A DNA stretch of 64,000 nucleotides from Escherichia coli (lineage in GTDB: Bacteria > Pseudomonadota > Gammaproteobacteria > Enterobacterales > Enterobacteriaceae): the NCBI RefSeq assembly GCF_003334305.1, contig NZ_QOWS01000020.1. The stretch is one strand, 5' to 3'. How positions within the stretch are numbered: position 1 is the stretch's first letter; each line of letters begins with the position of its first letter. Both the position numbers and the translations under genes were made by a program. Below are positions 1,319-31,120 of this stretch, piece after piece. The notes beneath the pieces were generated by a model. The model was not told where the DNA came from and searched no databases. It saw only the letters and a list, made by a program, of their open reading frames with translations.

Positions 1319-1683
1319 GGTGTAGGGCCTTCTGTAGTTAGAGGACAGCTTTAATAAGTAACAATCACCGCGATAAACGTAACCAATTTTTAGCAACTAA
1401 ACAGGGGAAAACAATTACAGATTTTTATCTTTCGATTACGATTTTTGGTTTATTTCTTGATTTATGACCGAGATCTTACTTTTGTTGCGCAATTGTACTT
1501 ATTGCATTTTTCTCTTCGAGGAATTACCCAGTTTCATCATTCCATTTTATTTTGCGAGCGAGCGCACACTTGTGAATTATCTCAATAGCAGTGTGAAATA
1601 ACATAATTGAGCAACTGAAAGGGAGTGCCCAATATTACGACATCATCCATCACCCGCGGCATTACCTGATTATGGAGTTCAAT
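1319..1683. promoter_or_regulatory. divergent xylF / xylA promoter region (XylR- and CRP-controlled in E. coli)
   Basis: 365 bp AT-rich spacer between divergently oriented xylF and xylA; individual XylR/CRP sites not resolved by eye. Confidence 0.6.
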
Positions 1684-3006
1684 ATGCAAGCCTATTTTGA
1701 CCAGCTCGATCGCGTTCGTTATGAAGGCTCAAAATCCTCAAACCCGTTAGCATTCCGTCACTACAATCCCGACGAACTGGTGTTGGGCAAGCGTATGGAA
1801 GAGCACTTGCGTTTTGCCGCCTGCTACTGGCACACATTCTGCTGGAACGGGGCGGACATGTTTGGTGTGGGGGCGTTTAATCGTCCGTGGCAGCAGCCTG
1901 GTGAGGCACTGGCGTTGGCGAAGCGTAAAGCAGATGTCGCATTTGAGTTTTTCCACAAGTTACATGTGCCATTTTATTGCTTCCACGATGTGGATGTTTC
2001 CCCTGAGGGCGCGTCGTTAAAAGAGTACATCAATAATTTTGCGCAAATGGTTGATGTCCTGGCAGGCAAGCAAGAAGAGAGCGGCGTGAAGCTGCTGTGG
2101 GGAACCGCTAACTGCTTTACAAACCCTCGCTATGGCGCGGGTGCGGCGACGAACCCAGATCCTGAAGTCTTCAGTTGGGCGGCAACGCAAGTTGTTACAG
2201 CGATGGAAGCAACCCATAAATTGGGCGGTGAAAACTATGTCCTGTGGGGCGGTCGTGAAGGTTACGAAACGCTGTTAAATACCGACTTGCGTCAGGAGCG
2301 TGAACAGCTGGGCCGCTTTATGCAGATGGTGGTTGAGCATAAACATAAAATCGGTTTCCAGGGCACGTTGCTTATCGAACCGAAACCGCAAGAACCGACC
2401 AAACATCAATATGATTACGATGCCGCGACGGTCTATGGCTTCCTGAAACAGTTTGGTCTGGAAAAAGAGATTAAACTGAACATTGAAGCTAACCACGCGA
2501 CGCTGGCAGGTCACTCTTTCCATCATGAAATTGCCACCGCCATTGCGCTTGGCCTGTTCGGTTCTGTCGACGCCAACCGTGGCGATGCGCAACTGGGCTG
2601 GGACACCGACCAGTTCCCGAACAGTGTGGAAGAGAATGCGCTGGTGATGTATGAAATTCTCAAAGCAGGCGGTTTCACCACCGGTGGTCTGAACTTCGAT
2701 GCCAAAGTACGTCGTCAAAGTACTGATAAATATGATCTGTTTTACGGTCATATCGGCGCGATGGATACGATGGCACTGGCGCTGAAAATTGCAGCGCGCA
2801 TGATTGAAGATGGCGAGCTGGATAAACGCATCGCGCAGCGTTATTCCGGCTGGAATAGCGAATTGGGCCAGCAAATCCTGAAAGGCCAAATGTCACTGGC
2901 AGATTTAGCCAAATATGCTCAGGAACATAATTTGTCTCCGGTGCATCAGAGTGGTCGCCAGGAGCAACTGGAAAATCTGGTAAATCATTATCTGTTCGAC
3001 AAATAA
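1684..3006 (+). CDS. xylA: xylose isomerase (440 aa)
   Basis: Track ORF trimmed to [17 protein letters not shown]...; full-length match to XylA as recalled. Confidence 0.95.
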
Positions 3007-3077
3007 CGGCTAACTGTGCAGTCCGTTGGCCCGGTTATCGGTAGCGATACCGGGCATTTTTTTAAGGAACGATCGAT

Positions 3078-4532
3078 ATGTATATCGGGATAGATCTTGG
3101 CACCTCGGGCGTAAAAGTTATTTTGCTCAACGAGCAGGGTGAGGTGGTTGCTTCGCAAACGGAAAAGCTGACCGTTTCGCGCCCGCATCCACTCTGGTCG
3201 GAACAAGACCCGGAACAGTGGTGGCAGGCAACTGATCGCGCAATGAAAGCTCTGGGCGATCAGCATTCTCTGCAGGACGTTAAAGCATTGGGTATTGCCG
3301 GCCAGATGCATGGAGCAACCTTACTGGATGCTCAACAACGGGTATTGCGCCCTGCCATTTTGTGGAACGACGGGCGCTGTGCGCAAGAGTGCACTTTGCT
3401 GGAAGCGAGAGTTCCGCAATCACGAGTGATTACCGGCAACCTGATGATGCCCGGATTTACTGCGCCTAAATTGCTATGGGTTCAGCGGCATGAGCCGGAG
3501 ATATTCCGTCAAATCGACAAAGTATTATTACCGAAAGATTACTTGCGTCTGCGTATGACGGGGGAGTTTGCCAGCGATATGTCTGACGCAGCTGGCACCA
3601 TGTGGCTGGATGTCGCAAAGCGTGACTGGAGTGACGTCATGCTGCAGGCTTGCGACTTATCTCGTGACCAGATGCCCGCATTATATGAAGGCAGCGAAAT
3701 TACTGGTGCTTTGTTACCTGAAGTTGCGAAAGCGTGGGGTATGGCGACGGTGCCAGTTGTCGCAGGCGGTGGCGACAATGCAGCTGGTGCAGTTGGTGTG
3801 GGAATGGTTGATGCTAATCAGGCAATGTTATCGCTGGGGACGTCGGGGGTCTATTTTGCTGTCAGCGAAGGGTTCTTAAGCAAGCCAGAAAGCGCTGTAC
3901 ACAGCTTTTGCCATGCGCTACCGCAGCGTTGGCATTTAATGTCTGTAATGCTGAGTGCAGCATCGTGTCTGGATTGGGTCGCGAAATTAACCGGCCTGTG
4001 CAATGTCCCAGCTTTAATCGCTGCAGCTCAACAGGCTGATGAAAGTGCCGAGCCAGTTTGGTTTCTGCCTTATCTTTCCGGCGAGCGTACACCACACAAT
4101 AATCCCCAGGCGAAGGGGGTTTTCTTTGGTTTGACTCATCAACATGGCCCCAATGAACTGGCGCGAGCAGTGCTGGAAGGCGTGGGTTATGCGCTGGCAG
4201 ATGGCATGGATGTCGTGCATGCCTGCGGCATTAAACCGCAAAGTGTTACGTTGATTGGTGGCGGGGCGCGTAGTGAGTACTGGCGTCAGATGCTGGCGGA
4301 TATCAGCGGTCAGCAGCTCGATTACCGTACGGGGGGGGATGTGGGGCCAGCACTGGGCGCAGCAAGGCTGGCGCAGATTGCGGCGAATCCAGAGAAATCG
4401 CTCATTGAGTTGTTGCCGCAGCTACCGTTAGAACAGTCGCATCTACCAGATGCGCAGCGTTATGCCGCTTATCAGCCACGACGTGAAACGTTCCGTCGCC
4501 TCTATCAGCAACTTCTGCCATTAATGGCGTAA
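3078..4532 (+). CDS. xylB: xylulokinase (484 aa)
   Basis: MYIGIDLGTSGVKVILL... FGGY-family sugar kinase immediately downstream of xylA. Confidence 0.95.
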   Translation: MYIGIDLGTSGVKVILLNEQGEVVASQTEKLTVSRPHPLWSEQDPEQWWQATDRAMKALGDQHSLQDVKALGIAGQMHGATLLDAQQRVLRPAILWNDGRCAQECTLLEARVPQSRVITGNLMMPGFTAPKLLWVQRHEPEIFRQIDKVLLPKDYLRLRMTGEFASDMSDAAGTMWLDVAKRDWSDVMLQACDLSRDQMPALYEGSEITGALLPEVAKAWGMATVPVVAGGGDNAAGAVGVGMVDANQAMLSLGTSGVYFAVSEGFLSKPESAVHSFCHALPQRWHLMSVMLSAASCLDWVAKLTGLCNVPALIAAAQQADESAEPVWFLPYLSGERTPHNNPQAKGVFFGLTHQHGPNELARAVLEGVGYALADGMDVVHACGIKPQSVTLIGGGARSEYWRQMLADISGQQLDYRTGGDVGPALGAARLAQIAANPEKSLIELLPQLPLEQSHLPDAQRYAAYQPRRETFRRLYQQLLPLMA

Positions 4533-4700
4533 ACGTTATCCCCTGCCTGACCGGGTGGGGGATAATTCACATCTATATATCTCACTAATTAATTAATATT
4601 TAGTATGAATTTATTCTGAAAATCATTTGTTAATGGCATTTTTCAGTTTTGTCTTTCGTTGGTTACTCGTAATGTATCGCTGGTAGATATGGAGATCGTT

Positions 4701-5042
4701 ATGAAAACCTCAAAAACTGTGGCAAAACTATTATTTGTTGTCGGGGCGCTGGTTTATCTGGTTGGGCTATGGATCTCATGCCCATTGCTAAGTGGAAAAG
4801 GCTATTTTCTTGGCGTGTTAATGACAGCAACTTTTGGTAACTATGCATATCTTCGCGCAGAAAAACTCGGGCAACTGGATAATTTTTTTACCCATATCTG
4901 CCAGTTAGTTGCGTTAATCACTATCGGTCTCTTGTTTATCGGTGTTTTAAATGCACCTATCAATGCTTATGAAATGGTGATCTACCCCATCGCCTTTTTT
5001 GTCTGCTTGTTTGGTCAAATGCGTTTGTTTCGCTCGGTATGA
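4701..5042 (+). CDS. yiaB: inner membrane protein YiaB (113 aa)
   Basis: ATG at 4701 preceded by GGAGA; hydrophobic small membrane protein; position and length match yiaB next to xylB. Confidence 0.8.
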   Translation: MKTSKTVAKLLFVVGALVYLVGLWISCPLLSGKGYFLGVLMTATFGNYAYLRAEKLGQLDNFFTHICQLVALITIGLLFIGVLNAPINAYEMVIYPIAFFVCLFGQMRLFRSV

Positions 5043-5087
5043 GCAACATAAAGCTCTTACACATTCAGGAATGAAAGGAATACTGTG

Positions 5088-5525
5088 ATGGACAACAAAA
5101 TATCAACCTATTCACCGGCCTTTAGTATTGTGTCATGGATAGCTCTCGTTGGTGGTATCGTTACCTATCTGTTAGGGCTATGGAATGCAGAGATGCAGTT
5201 AAATGAAAAAGGGTATTATTTTGCCGTACTGGTGTTAGGACTGTTTTCTGCTGCGTCTTATCAAAAGACCGTTCGGGACAAGTATGAAGGCATACCGACC
5301 ACTTCCATTTATTATATGACCTGCCTGACTGTCTTTATTATCTCTGTTGCATTACTGATGGTAGGTCTGTGGAATGCGACATTATTACTCAGTGAAAAAG
5401 GTTTTTATGGACTGGCTTTCTTCTTAAGCTTGTTTGGTGCAGTAGCGGTGCAGAAGAATATTCGTGATACCGGAATAAACCCGCCAAAAGAAACACAGGT
5501 TACCCAGGAAGAATACAGCGAATAA
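5088..5525 (+). CDS. yiaA: inner membrane protein YiaA (145 aa)
   Basis: Paralogue of the preceding ORF (shared GLWNA / SEKGFY motifs); synteny with yiaB. Confidence 0.8.
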
Positions 5526-5532
5526 TTCACGT

Positions 5533-5565
5533 AAGCCCGGTCAGTCCAATGTGAACGGGCTTTTA
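5533..5565 (+). terminator. putative rho-independent terminator after yiaA
   Basis: GC hairpin AAGCCCG...CGGGCTT followed by TTTT, between convergent yiaA and wecH. Confidence 0.5.
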
Positions 5566-5566
5566 C

Positions 5567-6562
5567 TTAACTCACTAATCTGTTTCTGTCGATTCGTTGT
5601 ACCAGCATAGAAAGTAACAAACTCGCTGCCAACGTCGCGCAAAAGATCCAAATAATATCCAGTATTGGCCAATTTTTAAGCTCAATTCCCCGGGTGCGCA
5701 GCGCATGGATAATCAAGGCGTGGAATCCGTATATACCCAATGAATGGCGGGAGATTAAGCCAAGTCCGCGAATGGTACGCGTATCCAGCGTGTTTTTAAC
5801 CAGAGTCAATAGCGCGATTGCGCAGATAAAAACCATCGGCCCACAGTAAAGATACCAGGTATCGGCAAAATTTCCGCGCCACTGCAATTCATATAATGTC
5901 CCGCGAGAGATAATAAAAACCCCCGTCGCAAACAGCGCGGCGCTCACCCACGACAGTGCTTTATGCTGTGTGTCCATCATCCCTATAGCGCGGCCCAACA
6001 TGCCATACAGAATGTAGTAAAAAGTATCGCCATTGATATATAAGTTAATTGGCAGCCATTCAAAACCGTCAATTTTCTGCGGCACTGTGTTTGGGTTAGC
6101 GATAATGCCAATCACCACCATTAGCACCAGCAACATTTTTCCGCCGACGTTCTTCACCTGAATCAGCGGTGAAACCAGATAAATCACCGCAATCGCGAAG
6201 AAAAACCACAAGTGGTAAAACACTGGCTTTTGCAGCAGGTTTTTCAGCGCTAACTCCATATTGATGGAGGTAAACAGCGCAATGTAGAGCAGTGCGATTG
6301 CGCTATAAAAAATCAGACATAAGCCGATACGCAAGAAATGGCGCGGCTGGGCGCTGCGTTCGCCAAAAAAGAGATAGCCGGAAATCATGAAAAATAGCGG
6401 CACGCTGACACGAGAGGCAGAATTCAGAACATTGGCGATATCCCAGGTGACGGGGCTAACACTATGAGCATTGGTCACATACCAGGTAGTGGTGTGAATC
6501 ATCACCACCATTAAACACGCTATCCCTCGCAGGTTATCAATCCAGTAAATTTTGGGCTGCAT
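5567..6562 (-). CDS. wecH: O-acetyltransferase WecH (331 aa, acyltransferase-3 family membrane protein)
   Basis: [25 protein letters not shown]... polytopic membrane acyltransferase; synteny (yiaH). Confidence 0.88.
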
Positions 6563-10166: not shown

Positions 10167-10352
10167 TATCGCTAAATAATACAGCAACCTTTAATAATCT
10201 TCTGCTGAATAAAGATTATCTCATATATTAATTTTATGAGGTTTTTTTAGGATTATATCAAGGAGAAGAAACAAACTTATTAAGCTAGAATAGCCACGGG
10301 TGCTTGAGACTGTTTGTCTCAGGTATTCACCGAAAGGCAGACAGAGAAAAGC

Positions 10353-10415
10353 CCCACCTGACTATAAATCAAAGTGAGGCTACCCTATGCCTGAACACCA
10401 TAAGGTTAGCCTCTT
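10353..10415 (-). ncRNA. sokA: candidate SokA antisense RNA (type I antitoxin), approximate bounds
   Basis: On the minus strand a 7-bp hairpin (GCCUCAC/GGUGGGGC) followed by UUUUCUCU lies just upstream of and overlapping the mok start, the position expected for Sok; the ends are inferred, not mapped. Confidence 0.35.
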
Positions 10416-10683
10416 ACTCGTTGGAAATCAACACAGGGGGCTGGGAATGCCGCAGAAATATAGATTACTTTCTTTAATAGTGATTTGTTTCACGCTTTTA
10501 TTTTTCACCTGGATGATAAGAGATTCACTGTGTGAATTGCATATTAAACAGGGGAGTTATGAGCTGGCGGCATTTTTAGCCTGCAATTTAAAAGAGTTAG
10601 AGTCTTCGGCGGGAAGTTATTCCCGCCTTTCTTACGGCGTTGCGCATTCTCATTGCACCCAAATTTATTTTTCACAAAAATAA
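10387..10683 (+). CDS. mokA: mokA-like reading frame (in-frame N-terminal extension of hok)
   Basis: ORF MPEHHKVSLLLVGNQHRGLG-MPQKYR... begins 20 codons upstream of and in frame with hok, as in chromosomal mok/hok pairs. Confidence 0.5.
   Translation: MPEHHKVSLLLVGNQHRGLGMPQKYRLLSLIVICFTLLFFTWMIRDSLCELHIKQGSYELAAFLACNLKELESSAGSYSRLSYGVAHSHCTQIYFSQK
10447..10683 (+). CDS. hokA: Hok-family type I toxin (HokA-like); frame runs 78 codons here against ~50 for canonical Hok
   Basis: MPQKYRLLSLIVICFTLLFFTWMIRDSLCELHIKQGSYELAAFLACNLKE... is a Hok family sequence; the codon after ...LKE is TTA rather than a stop and the frame continues to 10683. Confidence 0.7.
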   Translation: MPQKYRLLSLIVICFTLLFFTWMIRDSLCELHIKQGSYELAAFLACNLKELESSAGSYSRLSYGVAHSHCTQIYFSQK

Positions 10684-10724: not shown

Positions 10725-10762
10725 AACAAATAAAAAAATCCCCGCCAAATGGCAGGGATCTT
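10725..10762 (-). terminator. rho-independent terminator of cspA
   Basis: Minus-strand hairpin ATCCCTGCCATTTGGCGGGAT followed by TTTTTTT downstream of the cspA stop. Confidence 0.8.
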
Positions 10763-10786
10763 AGATTCTGTGCTTTTAAGCAGAGA

Positions 10787-10999
10787 TTACAGGCTGGTTA
10801 CGTTACCAGCTGCCGGGCCTTTAGCGCCGCTTTCGATGGTGAAGGACACTTTCTGACCTTCGTCCAGAGATTTGTAACCATCGTTCTGGATAGCAGAGAA
10901 GTGTACGAACACGTCTTTAGAGCCATCGTCAGGAGTGATGAAGCCGAAGCCTTTGTCAGCGTTGAACCATTTTACGATACCAGTCATTTTACCGGACAT
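10787..10999 (-). CDS. cspA: major cold shock protein CspA (70 aa)
   Basis: [70 protein letters not shown]. Confidence 0.98.
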
Positions 11000-11225
11000 A
11001 GTGTATTACCTTTAATAATTAAGTGTGCCTTTCGGCGATATGGCGTGCTTTACAGATTTTGAAGCGTTAAAGGAATGTGCACTACGAGGGGTATCAACGA
11101 TAACTCTTGAAGGGACTTGCCTTACTACACTGCTTTAATGGTCTGTACGTCAAACCGTTGATGTGCATTAAGCCACGCATTGGCGGGTGATGCAACAATT
11201 ATTTTTCATATTTATGATTAATCGG
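11000..11225 (-). promoter_or_regulatory. cspA promoter and ~159-nt 5-prime UTR including the cold box
   Basis: Reverse complement of 11141-11158 gives ACGGTTTGACGTACAGAC (cspA mRNA 5-prime end / cold box); upstream minus-strand TTGCAT ... CTTAAT and an AT-rich UP-like region. Confidence 0.8.
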
Positions 11226-20572: not shown

Positions 20573-22264
20573 ATGAGATACATCAAATCGATTACACAGC
20601 AGAAGCTGAGCTTTTTGCTTGCAATCTATATTGGCCTTTTTATGAATGGCGCGGTTTTTTATCGCCGCTTCGGCAGCTATGCGCACGATTTTACCGTCTG
20701 GAAAGGCGTTTCTGCCGTTGTTGAACTGGCCGCCACCGTACTGGTGACCTTCTTTTTACTACGTCTTCTATCGCTGTTTGGCCGCCGCAGCTGGCGTATT
20801 CTGGCGTCGCTGGTGGTGCTCTTTTCCGCAGGTGCCAGCTATTACATGACCTTCCTTAATGTGGTCATTGGTTATGGCATCATCGCTTCCGTCATGACCA
20901 CCGATATCGACCTGTCAAAAGAAGTTGTTGGTCTGAACTTTATTCTCTGGTTAATCGCCGTTAGTGCATTGCCTCTTATCCTTATCTGGAATAACCGCTG
21001 TCGCTACACCTTGCTCCGACAACTGCGAACCCCAGGGCAGCGTATTCGCAGCCTGGCGGTCGTCGTACTGGCGGGTATTATGGTTTGGGCACCGATTCGT
21101 TTGCTGGATATCCAGCAGAAGAAAGTGGAGAGGGCGACCGGCGTTGATTTGCCGAGTTATGGCGGTGTCGTAGCGAACTCTTATCTGCCATCAAACTGGC
21201 TTTCTGCGTTGGGGCTGTATGCCTGGGCGCGGGTCGATGAATCTTCCGATAATAATTCATTGCTTAATCCGGCGAAGAAATTCACTTATCAGGCACCGCA
21301 AAACGTTGATGACACTTATGTCGTGTTTATCATCGGTGAAACCACGCGTTGGGACCATATGGGCATTTTCGGCTATGAGCGTAATACCACGCCGAAACTG
21401 GCCCAGGAGAAAAATCTGGCGGCGTTCCGTGGTTACTCCTGTGATACCGCAACCAAACTCTCACTGCGTTGCATGTTTGTACGTCAGGGGGGCGCGGAAG
21501 ATAATCCGCAGCGCACATTAAAAGAACAGAACATTTTCGCGGTTCTGAAGCAGTTAGGATTCAGTTCTGACCTCTACGCTATGCAGAGCGAAATGTGGTT
21601 CTACAGCAACACGATGGCGGACAACATTGCTTATCGTGAGCAGATTGGTGCGGAGCCACGTAATCGTGGCAAGCCGGTAGATGATATGTTGCTGGTAGAC
21701 GAAATGCAGCAATCGCTAGGGCGCAACCCGGATGGTAAGCATCTGATCATTCTGCATACCAAAGGTTCGCATTTTAACTACACCCAGCGTTATCCGCGTA
21801 GCTTCGCGCAGTGGAAGCCGGAATGTATTGGTGTTGATAGCGGCTGTACCAAAGCGCAGATGATCAACTCCTATGACAACTCGGTGACCTATGTGGATCA
21901 CTTTATCTCCAGCGTGATTGATCAGGTTCGCGATAAGAAAGCGATTGTGTTCTACGCAGCTGACCACGGTGAGTCAATTAATGAACGCGAGCACCTGCAC
22001 GGCACGCCGCGTGAACTGGCACCGCCGGAGCAGTTCCGCGTACCGATGATGGTCTGGATGTCAGATAAATATCTGGAAAATCCGGCCAATGCTCAGGCAT
22101 TTGCGCAGCTGAAAAAAGAAGCCGACATGAAAGTGCCACGCCGTCATGTAGAGCTGTACGACACCATCATGGGTTGTCTTGGCTATACTTCACCGGATGG
22201 TGGAATTAACGAAAACAACAACTGGTGTCACATCCCGCAGACAAAAGTGGCAGCGGCTAACTAA
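20573..22264 (+). CDS. eptB: Kdo2-lipid A phosphoethanolamine transferase EptB (563 aa)
   Basis: Track ORF trimmed to [21 protein letters not shown]...; N-terminal TM domain plus sulfatase-like domain. Confidence 0.92.
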
Positions 22265-22355
22265 GCGGCCTGCTGACTTTCTCGCCGATCAAAAGGCATT
22301 TTGCTATTAAGGGATTGACGAGGGCGTATCTGCGCAGTAAGATGCGCCCCGCATT

Positions 22356-22432
<77 letters not shown>

Positions 22433-22438
22433 AATTCG

Positions 22439-22468
22439 AAAAGCCTGCTCAACGAGCAGGCTTTTTTG
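22439..22468 (+). terminator. rho-independent terminator of proK
   Basis: AAGCCTGCTCAACGAGCAGGCTT hairpin followed by TTTTT. Confidence 0.85.
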
Positions 22469-22519
22469 CATTTGTAGCTCATGAGGATGAGAACCTCCGG
22501 GGGCGGGGAGGTTCGACTC

Positions 22520-22615
22520 GACGTAGGCCTGATAAGACGCGTCAGCGTCGCATCAGGCAACGGCACCGCACTTATTGTCGGATGCGGCGTGAACGCCTTA
22601 TTCGACCTACACGCC
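22520..22615. repeat. REP / BIME-type palindromic units
   Basis: GCCTGATAAGACGCG...CGCATCAGGC and CGGATGCGGCGTGAACGCCTTAT units typical of E. coli REP elements. Confidence 0.7.
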
Positions 22616-23176
22616 ACACATTTCCCTGCCAAATTTGCGCCCCATATCTCACTATCCATTAACGGATTTGTGACAGAAACCATTGTCTTTTTTTATATTT
22701 GCTTAAATCTTTTTTTTCGTAACTTATGGCTGGCGCTGGCATTTTCCGCTGTGCGTTTTAGCGTTCATGGTATTAATCGCTCAGATATCCACCTTTTCCT
22801 CAGATTTTTTTCACTAAATGCATAAAACTTAATCACCAAATGTTGCTAAATATTAAGCTGATTGTTCTGGTCATGTTGGAGTAGCACAAATTTCTCTGCT
22901 GCAAATAGCTGTTTGAAGTTTTTTTAATCTTTGTTTGTGGATTCTCACCGTTGGTGTAAATCCCGGTTGGCTGTATTGACGTTTTCACATTCTGTTGACA
23001 GATTGTAGGTCACGAGGGGCATTTTATGGAGGATCCGCACTGTTACACTGATGTTAATTAGTACGGCATCCCCACCTCATAACGTTGACCCGACCGGGCA
23101 AAAAACAAAAAAGGTCAGGCAGCGACAACCCACTGCAAAGGGTTAAAACAACAAACATCACAATTGGAGCAGAATA

Positions 23177-24784
23177 ATGCGTATTTCCTTGAAAAAGTCA
23201 GGGATGCTGAAGCTTGGTCTCAGCCTGGTGGCTATGACCGTCGCAGCAAGTGTTCAGGCTAAAACTCTGGTTTATTGCTCAGAAGGATCTCCGGAAGGGT
23301 TTAACCCGCAGCTGTTTACCTCCGGTACCACCTATGACGCCTCTTCCGTACCGCTTTATAACCGCCTGGTTGAATTTAAAATCGGCACCACCGAAGTGAT
23401 TCCGGGCCTCGCTGAAAAGTGGGAAGTCAGCGAAGACGGTAAAACCTATACCTTCCATCTGCGTAAAGGTGTGAAGTGGCACGACAATAAAGAATTCAAA
23501 CCGACGCGTGAACTGAACGCCGATGACGTGGTGTTCTCGTTCGATCGTCAGAAAAACGCGCAAAACCCGTACCATAAAGTTTCTGGCGGCAGCTACGAAT
23601 ACTTCGAAGGCATGGGCTTGCCGGAGCTGATCAGCGAAGTGAAAAAGGTGGACGACAACACAGTTCAGTTTGTGCTGACTCGCCCGGAAGCGCCGTTCCT
23701 CGCTGACCTGGCAATGGACTTCGCCTCTATTCTGTCAAAAGAATATGCTGATGCGATGATGAAAGCCGGTACACCGGAAAAACTGGACCTCAACCCAATC
23801 GGCACCGGTCCGTTCCAGTTACAGCAGTATCAAAAAGATTCCCGTATCCGCTACAAAGCGTTTGATGGCTACTGGGGCACCAAACCGCAGATCGATACGC
23901 TGGTCTTCTCTATTACCCCTGACGCTTCCGTGCGTTACGCGAAATTGCAGAAGAATGAATGCCAGGTGATGCCGTACCCGAACCCGGCAGATATCGCTCG
24001 CATGAAGCAGGATAAATCCATCAATCTGATGGAAATGCCGGGGCTGAACGTCGGCTATCTTTCATATAACGTGCAGAAAAAACCACTCGATGACGTAAAA
24101 GTTCGCCAGGCTCTGACCTACGCGGTGAACAAAGACGCGATCATCAAAGCGGTTTATCAGGGCGCGGGTGTATCAGCGAAAAACCTGATCCCGCCAACCA
24201 TGTGGGGCTATAACGACGACGTTCAGGACTACACCTACGATCCTGAAAAAGCGAAAGCCTTGCTGAAAGAAGCGGGTCTGGAAAAAGGTTTCTCCATCGA
24301 CCTGTGGGCGATGCCGGTACAACGTCCGTATAACCCGAACGCTCGCCGCATGGCGGAGATGATTCAGGCAGACTGGGCGAAAGTCGGCGTGCAGGCCAAA
24401 ATTGTCACCTACGAATGGGGTGAGTACCTCAAGCGTGCGAAAGATGGCGAGCACCAGACGGTAATGATGGGCTGGACTGGCGATAACGGGGATCCGGATA
24501 ACTTCTTCGCCACCCTGTTCAGCTGCGCCGCCTCTGAACAAGGCTCCAACTACTCAAAATGGTGCTACAAACCGTTTGAAGATCTGATTCAACCGGCGCG
24601 TGCTACCGACGACCATAACAAACGCGTTGAACTGTACAAACAAGCACAGGTGGTGATGCACGATCAGGCTCCGGCACTGATCATCGCTCACTCCACCGTG
24701 TTTGAACCGGTACGTAAAGAAGTTAAAGGCTATGTGGTTGATCCATTAGGCAAACATCACTTCGAAAACGTCTCTATCGAATAA
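23177..24784 (+). CDS. dppA: dipeptide ABC transporter periplasmic binding protein (535 aa)
   Basis: MRISLKKSGMLKLGLSLVAMTVAASVQAKTLVYCSEGSPEGFNPQ... Confidence 0.96.
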   Translation: MRISLKKSGMLKLGLSLVAMTVAASVQAKTLVYCSEGSPEGFNPQLFTSGTTYDASSVPLYNRLVEFKIGTTEVIPGLAEKWEVSEDGKTYTFHLRKGVKWHDNKEFKPTRELNADDVVFSFDRQKNAQNPYHKVSGGSYEYFEGMGLPELISEVKKVDDNTVQFVLTRPEAPFLADLAMDFASILSKEYADAMMKAGTPEKLDLNPIGTGPFQLQQYQKDSRIRYKAFDGYWGTKPQIDTLVFSITPDASVRYAKLQKNECQVMPYPNPADIARMKQDKSINLMEMPGLNVGYLSYNVQKKPLDDVKVRQALTYAVNKDAIIKAVYQGAGVSAKNLIPPTMWGYNDDVQDYTYDPEKAKALLKEAGLEKGFSIDLWAMPVQRPYNPNARRMAEMIQADWAKVGVQAKIVTYEWGEYLKRAKDGEHQTVMMGWTGDNGDPDNFFATLFSCAASEQGSNYSKWCYKPFEDLIQPARATDDHNKRVELYKQAQVVMHDQAPALIIAHSTVFEPVRKEVKGYVVDPLGKHHFENVSIE

Positions 24785-30520: not shown

Positions 30521-30584
30521 GAGAGAAAACCCCCGCACGTTGCAGGTATGCACCTGACAACATAACGGGGGCTAATCTTGAACC
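30521..30584 (-). ncRNA. rdlD: Rdl antisense RNA (antitoxin), copy 1
   Basis: Minus-strand sequence GGUUCAAGAUUAGCCCCCGUUAUGUUGUCAGGUGCAUACCUGCAACGUGCGGGGGUUUUCUCUC ends in a GC hairpin plus U-run and matches the Rdl family as I recall it; ends approximate. Confidence 0.6.
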
Positions 30585-30637
30585 TAAACAACTCAAGAAT
30601 AGCCGCGAAACGTTGTCATTACAACACAGGCGGCTAT

Positions 30638-31003: not shown

Positions 31004-31067
31004 GAGAGAAAACCCCCGCACGTTGCAGGTATGCACCTGACAACATAACGGGGGCTAATCTTGAACC
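31004..31067 (-). ncRNA. Rdl antisense RNA, copy 2
   Basis: Identical to copy 1 over this segment. Confidence 0.6.
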
Positions 31068-31120
31068 TAAACAACTCAAGAATAGCCGCGAAACGTTGTC
31101 ATTACAACACAGGCGGCTAT

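Follow-up and report, generated by a model that had tools for sequence, protein, structure and literature searches.

The RtT RNA is a tRNA-linked repeat first described at tyrT, where it corresponds to 178-bp repeats (Bösl and Kersten 1991, as related in PMC3318445 and PMC4986893). Its copy number varies between Erwinia pyrifoliae strains (PMC7542023), as we find at proK, and RtT elements lie beside Asn and Lys tRNAs in A. pleuropneumoniae (PMC4986893). In the literature that we searched we found nothing specific on rttR or on RtT at proK, and no paper describing a presence/absence polymorphism of RtT at this locus. Two further described systems bear on the region downstream of proK. One is the REP, a target of the insertion sequences IS621 and IS1397 (PMC1525189). 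The other is the dppA leader, for which GcvB- and Hfq-dependent repression in vivo has been demonstrated in K-12 (PMC1807950, PMC1557403): a dppA::gfp fusion carrying the native leader from −165 is repressed about 3-fold by GcvB (PMC1807950), and deletion of gcvB raises expression of dppA::lacZ about 5-fold (PMC1557403).

We analyzed the spacer between proK and dppA in a 64,000-nucleotide stretch of Escherichia coli DNA (contig NZ_QOWS01000020.1), referred to below as the window. The left edge of the spacer is proK, the gene for tRNA-Pro(CGG), at 22356–22432 on the plus strand (ARAGORN; Rfam tRNA, 60.7 bits), and the right edge is the dppA ORF of 535 aa at 23177–24784 on the same strand. The spacer thus occupies positions 22433–23176 (744 bp) and is non-coding, exactly as the preliminary description had it; ARAGORN, Rfam, the dppA ORF and the annotation of the complete E. 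coli genome TUM18781 all agree on this. TUM18781 is 100% identical to the window over 22300–23300, and its RefSeq annotation lists eptB, tRNA-Pro and dppA with nothing between the latter two. Our main reading, to which we assign a probability of about 0.85, is that the 744-bp spacer is assembled from known elements: the proK terminator, the stump of an RtT repeat unit, a two-REP BIME and the control DNA of dppA. Each of these components belongs to an already described kind, namely an intrinsic terminator, an RtT tRNA-linked repeat, a REP/BIME and a GcvB-regulated leader. The terminator and the two REP units had been named in the preliminary description, and both are borne out below by the hairpin fold and by Rfam naRNA4, respectively.

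Sequence divergence around the spacer changes sharply at the proK tRNA gene. Over the last 600 nt of eptB (21664–22264), this strain has only about 80% identity to E. albertii, E. whittamii and the divergent ‘E. coli’ SCPM-O-B-8794; in the same comparison dppA (23177–24076) is about 96% identical. Elsewhere in the window, Rfam identifies the cspA thermoregulator (10732–11159, minus strand), the sok antitoxin RNA (10298–10449, plus strand) and two rdlD antitoxin RNAs with equal scores (30524–30589 and 31007–31072, minus strand), all of which are ordinary E. coli features.

The proK 3′ trailer and intrinsic terminator span 22433–22467 on the plus strand. Six bases 3′ of the tRNA begins a perfect 12-nt inverted repeat (22439–22450/22454–22465), which forms part of a 13-bp stem (22438–22450/22454–22466) with a 3-nt loop and an 8-bp GC core, GCCUGCUC/GAGCAGGC. 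A run of six U residues lies at 22462–22467, so that the GC-rich hairpin is directly followed by a U run, as expected of an intrinsic terminator. The hairpin 22438–22466 has a fold energy of −18.2 kcal/mol (z = −4.75), and none of 200 shuffled sequences folds as well. A simple consensus scanner made no terminator call here, probably because some of the U residues are base-paired within the stem. Since the promoter and terminator consensus scan missed both this terminator and the dppA promoter discussed below, its output was left out as evidence. Transcription of proK would be expected to stop at the strong intrinsic terminator at 22438–22467.

Immediately past the terminator, at 22467–22521 (plus strand), lies a segment absent from the preliminary description, which internal repeats and alignment to K-12 (one-unit) and two-unit alleles identify as the 5′ part of an RtT(Pro) repeat. 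It begins 35 nt past proK and holds an antisense copy of the tRNA T-arm at 22483–22499 and, at 22507–22519 (102 bp 3′ of the original), the 5′ half of the T-arm in sense orientation, GGAGGTTCGACTC; the matching sequence in the tRNA itself is GGAGGTTCGAATC. The segment corresponds to about the first 52 of the 130 positions of the Rfam model RF00391 (RtT). Like RtT elements elsewhere, it lies directly 3′ of a tRNA gene and has T-arm sequence in common with it. However, alignment to longer alleles reveals that the window is without the 66-nt core and the pseudo-tRNA 3′ end. The outer helix of RtT, in which the 5′ antisense T-arm pairs with a 3′ pseudo-tRNA end (...AUCCUC...CCA) around a core of about 66 nt, is consequently missing, and all that is kept of the fold is its 5′ strand together with the first inner hairpin (22483–22519). 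RF00391 gave no match within 21800–23800 at E ≤ 1, nor anywhere in the window at the gathering score (45 bits). The window therefore holds a stump of an RtT(Pro) unit and not an RtT. As the fold is impossible from the 5′ stump alone, this locus makes no RtT(Pro) RNA.

The full unit, as seen in other strains, is 168 bp long and consists of the last 19 nt of tRNA-Pro, the trailer, the terminator, the antisense T-arm, GGAGGTTCGA (the T-arm 5′ half) and the 66-nt core, which reads CTCGAGCGAAG...GGCGAGT. At the homologous place in K-12, RF00391 scores 101.3 bits, and each full unit, including both of those in CFSAN064035, scores about 101 bits. The proK copy of RtT is routinely annotated in RefSeq: PGAP calls an ‘RtT sRNA’ after proK in K-12 and two of them in CFSAN064035. 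In the consensus fold of 13 Pro and Tyr units, the antisense segment on the 5′ side is paired with the 3′ end of the pseudo-tRNA, and six base pairs are compensated between the Tyr and Pro units. Each extra unit would accordingly be predicted to fold as an RtT RNA with this pairing. Whether RtT(Pro) is expressed is uncertain, because every Pro unit includes a copy of the proK terminator.

The tyrT locus provides the closest comparison. It has four RF00391 matches (133–137 bits), whose T-arm and 3′ end are those of tRNA-Tyr. The proK units of K-12, E. albertii, Salmonella and Klebsiella have the same layout, being arranged in tandem with the tRNA's own 3′ end last, and their core of about 66 nt is 77–81% identical to that of tyrT. 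The two sets differ in that Pro units end in the 3′ end of tRNA-Pro and tyrT units in that of tRNA-Tyr, and in that Pro units carry a terminator copy, whereas inspection of the tyrT units revealed no similar combination of a GC-rich hairpin and a subsequent U run. The window itself, having only the 5′ stump, is not a member of either set. In alleles that contain RtT(Pro) units an arginine-rich ORF (locus records 1682–2029 and 3068–3580) reads through the unit. In our translation of tyrT, a stretch of the ORF annotated there in the RtT unit as tpr, ‘protamine-like protein’, has its frame and the residues QRPxGR in common with this ORF, a resemblance that may be coincidental.

The number of RtT(Pro) units largely sets the length of the spacer. 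We measured spacers of 744, 796, 910 and 1080 bp, as well as of about 2.2–2.3 kb in alleles bearing an insertion sequence. The K-12 spacer (910 bp) has one unit and that of CFSAN064035 (1080 bp) has two; in alignments, alleles with zero, one and two units differ by exact 168-bp units. For counting, we used a 141-nt probe over the core and both junctions, with at least 80% of it covered, against 5426 complete E. coli genomes. Of these, 2669 have one or more full units, and another 2711 match at the tRNA end and the hairpin only, as in the window. Alleles with two units are rare, amounting to 1 of 40 and 1 of 60 genomes in evenly spaced samples. These allele counts hinge on BLAST coverage thresholds, and because repeated pieces are joined the two-unit total is not exact. 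The ‘RtT sRNA’ annotated next to proK in half of E. coli is thus truly absent from the rest, and its patchy annotation is not an error.

The direction of this change can be read from related species. After proK there is one RtT(Pro) unit in E. albertii, in Escherichia sp. E1V33 and in a Salmonella Kentucky contig, two in E. whittamii and in Salmonella Infantis, and three in Klebsiella pneumoniae. Since units are present in every outgroup sampled, the array is ancestral and the zero-unit allele a derived loss. The roughly equal frequency of the two forms in E. coli might be taken to suggest the opposite, that the zero-unit allele is the ancestral one and that the other half of the species gained its unit by insertion. 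We consider this very improbable, given that every sampled outgroup species or genus has at least one unit, that the zero-unit allele has about 52 positions from the start of the RtT model, a segment intelligible only as a remnant, and that the core could not be regenerated from the stump. As for how the loss came about, the end points of the deletion fall in the 102-bp direct repeats that flank the core, and the whole 168-bp unit was probably lost here by unequal homologous recombination or slippage between these repeats.

The loss probably happened more than once. In a neighbor-joining tree built from the 663 nt on the dppA side of the BIME, zero-unit alleles (the window, O157, the B2 strain NRG857C, MS1685 and SCPM-O-B-8794) are interleaved with one-unit alleles, and the closest relative of the window on this tree, with 99.7% identity, is strain 492, which has one unit. 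Moreover, zero-unit alleles carry at least three different repeat haplotypes, each matching copies in one-unit strains. Taken together, the interleaving and the several haplotypes suggest several independent losses; the tree is based on few SNPs, and the exchange of alleles by recombination is the alternative. Such a polymorphism is the expected behavior of a tandem repeat.

A different origin for the T-arm duplication at 22483–22519 also has to be considered. The 3′ halves of tRNA genes are classic integration sites, and the repetition of the tRNA T-arm in direct orientation 102 bp further on, together with the extra genes found in Salmonella between the RtT units and dppA, could be seen as the att-site scar of an integrase-mediated element formerly inserted into the proK T-loop. 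Several observations make this quite unlikely. No integrase or element remnant is present at the locus; the stump and core are found at one position in all three of Escherichia, Salmonella and Klebsiella, their cores being 94–97% identical; tyrT has a homologous unit whose RNA fold is conserved and covarying; and alleles with zero, one and two units differ by exact units. A search of a phage collection yielded four matches, none of them from a genuine phage: three are Salmonella chromosomal contigs and the fourth is an unverified 7-kb record with proK and dppA. The evidence thus favors a stump left by the loss of a repeat unit. The Salmonella genes themselves, about 4 kb including one for a ‘divergent AAA domain protein’, separate the RtT(Pro) units from the conserved region upstream of dppA (locus records 3338–6168 and 1504–5700) and look like an islet beside the tRNA/RtT array.

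The databases deserve a cautionary remark in this respect. The Salmonella and Klebsiella loci used here were taken from chromosomal records misfiled in phage and plasmid collections. The phage collection holds Salmonella chromosomal WGS contigs as well as the unverified ‘Salmonella phage’ record mentioned above, and PLSDB lists entire chromosomes of Klebsiella and E. coli among its plasmids. Such records are a source of false phage and plasmid matches.

Downstream of the stump lies the BIME (22523–22610). It is composed of a REP in reverse orientation (22523–22558), a 17-nt linker and a second REP (22576–22610), which we take, going by the REP consensus sequences, to be of the Z and Y types, respectively. 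Rfam naRNA4 (RF02564) matches 22526–22607 with 72.3 bits on the minus strand (gathering score 59.5, E = 2e-12) and 51 bits on the plus strand, and the region folds as two hairpins (z = −5.5). The pair thus has the make-up of a typical BIME, that is, two imperfect palindromes of 30–35 nt conforming to the enterobacterial consensus, inverted with respect to each other, separated by a short linker and placed between a terminator and the next promoter. The Rfam family RF02564 is itself built on a BIME, and nothing about the one in the window is unusual. When used as a megablast query, the spacer region matches a median of eight places per genome.

According to the preliminary description, spacer length may differ between strains through REP copy number. 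Instead of one length in every strain we measured several length classes, so that the first part of this claim stands; as to the cause, it mostly fails for E. coli. A 201-nt BIME probe spans 199–202 nt in 50 of 60 genomes sampled evenly down the ranking, indicating two REPs in most. The BIME linker occurs as two haplotypes, of which the K-12 type is about 94% identical to the window type over this probe. Furthermore, the common classes of 744, 910 and 1080 bp are set apart by RtT units of exactly 168 bp, with IS insertions next in importance. Variation in REP number does occur: E. whittamii has three BIMEs in the proK–dppA spacer, a rare 796-bp E. coli allele (WCHEC040047) has one REP rather than two, and in 3 of the 60 genomes the probe is only 41–57% covered without an obvious IS. 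As the driver of length variation among strains, it is nevertheless an unlikely explanation. The main length variable is the copy number of the RtT unit, followed by IS insertion, and REP number contributes rarely.

A contiguous match to the 1-kb region is missing from 638 of the 5426 complete E. coli genomes (12%). All four genomes from this set that we opened contain an IS in the spacer: IS621 in two, IS1397 in one and ISEc13 in one. In the alleles examined (one for each element), IS1397 lies within the loop of the first REP and IS621 at the edge of the first REP. These positions agree with the REP targeting known for the two elements (PMC1525189), and in other strains the two-REP BIME that follows the stump is a landing site for insertion sequences of this kind.

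We also asked whether the spacer might code for a protein. Comparison across alleles revealed no conserved ORF. The longest candidate is an ATG ORF of 114 codons at 22481–22825 (plus strand), a longer version of which is called a hypothetical protein by PGAP in IS621-bearing alleles. That it represents a real gene is hardly credible, because it runs through the REPs, is left unannotated in a 100% identical genome, and in K-12 and WCHEC040047 has 57–59 codons or another C-terminus owing to indels in the BIME linker. Small ORFs of the dppA leader (11, 31 and 30 codons) were rejected together with it, as their length and sequence, like those of the 114-aa ORF, are not conserved across alleles or genera and none has an SD sequence. 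Those of 11 and 31 codons lie within 23026–23146; their Salmonella and Klebsiella counterparts start nearby in the same frame and differ in length and sequence. The leader ORFs are probably non-coding. Another rejected candidate is a weak Rfam match to STnc550, a Salmonella sRNA family, at 22805–22910 (15 bits, E = 0.9). It disappeared in a narrower search and was taken as chance, and we found no mention of STnc550 in the literature searched.

The remainder of the spacer is devoted to dppA. An AT-rich upstream region (22655–22975, plus strand) contains, in alignments, blocks that are invariant across Escherichia, Salmonella and Klebsiella: 22669–22675 (TGTGACA), 22708–22715, 22739–22756, 22771–22783 (TATTAATCGCTCA), 22888–22894 and 22920–22933 (TTTTTTAATCTTTG). 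Conservation across genera therefore reaches back about 320 bp upstream, to about 22669. These blocks may be regulator-binding or architectural DNA. The first of them overlaps a putative promoter-like site, GTGACA-18-TATATT, at 22670–22699 (plus strand), with 10 of 12 matches to the consensus; its −35-like TGTGACA is invariant across genera, whereas the −10-like hexamer is not. The consensus scan found two promoter sites where 1.3 are expected by chance.

The candidate hexamers of the dppA promoter itself lie within 22976–23011 (plus strand). They are the −35 element TTGACG at 22976–22981 and a −10 element, CAGATT, at 22999–23004; the latter is weak, with 3 of 6 matches, and the promoter scanner made no call at this site. 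Blocks 22971–22984 and 22995–23009 are invariant in the three genera. We infer from these hexamers a promoter of the sigma-70 type, with transcription starting at about 23012, a start that is taken from the −165 end of the K-12 fusion (PMC1807950). A literature search on regulators of the dppA promoter returned nothing usable for E. coli. The control DNA of dppA would thus comprise about 320 bp of upstream sequence conserved block by block, then the sigma-70-type promoter and then a 165-nt leader.

This untranslated leader (23012–23176, plus strand) ends with the SD sequence GGAG (23166–23169) ahead of the ATG at 23177. It is 100% identical to the K-12 leader and 98.8–99.4% identical to those of other Escherichia species; the corresponding values in the same comparison are 95.7–96.6% for the dppA coding sequence and 90–99% for the upstream DNA. 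Its structure is not unusual (z = −1.5). Invariant across genera are the leader start and the GcvB/SD region, including a ACATCACAATTGGAGCAGAA block. Just 5′ of the SD is a C/A-rich stretch, AACAACAAACAUCACAAU (23147–23164, plus strand), which forms the best duplex with GcvB. When GcvB nt 63–91 (R1) were paired with every 30-nt segment of the spacer, the lowest energy, −25.4 kcal/mol, fell at 23147–23164, about 3 sd below the spacer mean (−11.6, sd 4.4). Only the R1 region was used, because RNAduplex returned a meaningless whole-length duplex for full-length GcvB against the full leader. Such complementarity is typical of GcvB-regulated leaders: in dppA and oppA, a C/A-rich stretch just 5′ of the SD is complementary to the G/U-rich R1 of GcvB, and we detected no difference from this pattern in the window. 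The long sRNA-regulated dppA leader of the preliminary description is therefore confirmed by its identity to the K-12 leader, for which GcvB repression is known (PMC1807950). In this strain, the C/A-rich stretch beside the SD would pair with GcvB, and translation of dppA would be repressed.

A scan of contigs with a 21-nt leader pattern found five loci only, all with Escherichia dppA sequence. One nominal exception in taxonomy, USHA01000015.1, a contig of a MAG labeled ‘uncultured Collinsella sp.’, switches abruptly from unrelated sequence, presumably that of the MAG itself, to E. coli dppA (300–1000) and is identical to the window from only 76 nt upstream of the dppA ATG. Chimeric assembly or contamination of the MAG is the most likely cause.

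Overall, the region matters little in itself, being a textbook mix of a terminator, repeats and a well-studied sRNA-regulated leader. The spacer is at the same time a small hotspot of structural variation, with loss and gain of the RtT unit and insertions of IS621, IS1397 and ISEc13 that leave the dppA control region untouched. The conservation of RtT(Pro) across genera, set against its loss from half of E. coli, is a modest and mildly surprising curiosity. Escherichia, Salmonella and Klebsiella have cores that are 94–97% identical, and compensatory changes preserve the RtT(Pro) fold in comparison with the tyrT copies; on these grounds it is possible, if rather doubtful, that RtT(Pro) is a functional tRNA-like RNA, even though about half of E. 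coli has lost it by deletion, probably on repeated occasions. Less likely still, the blocks 160–340 bp upstream of the dppA start, including 22670–22699, might carry an undescribed regulatory input. Were RtT(Pro) indeed functional, the zero-unit strains would be natural knock-outs able to reveal the role of RtT RNA.
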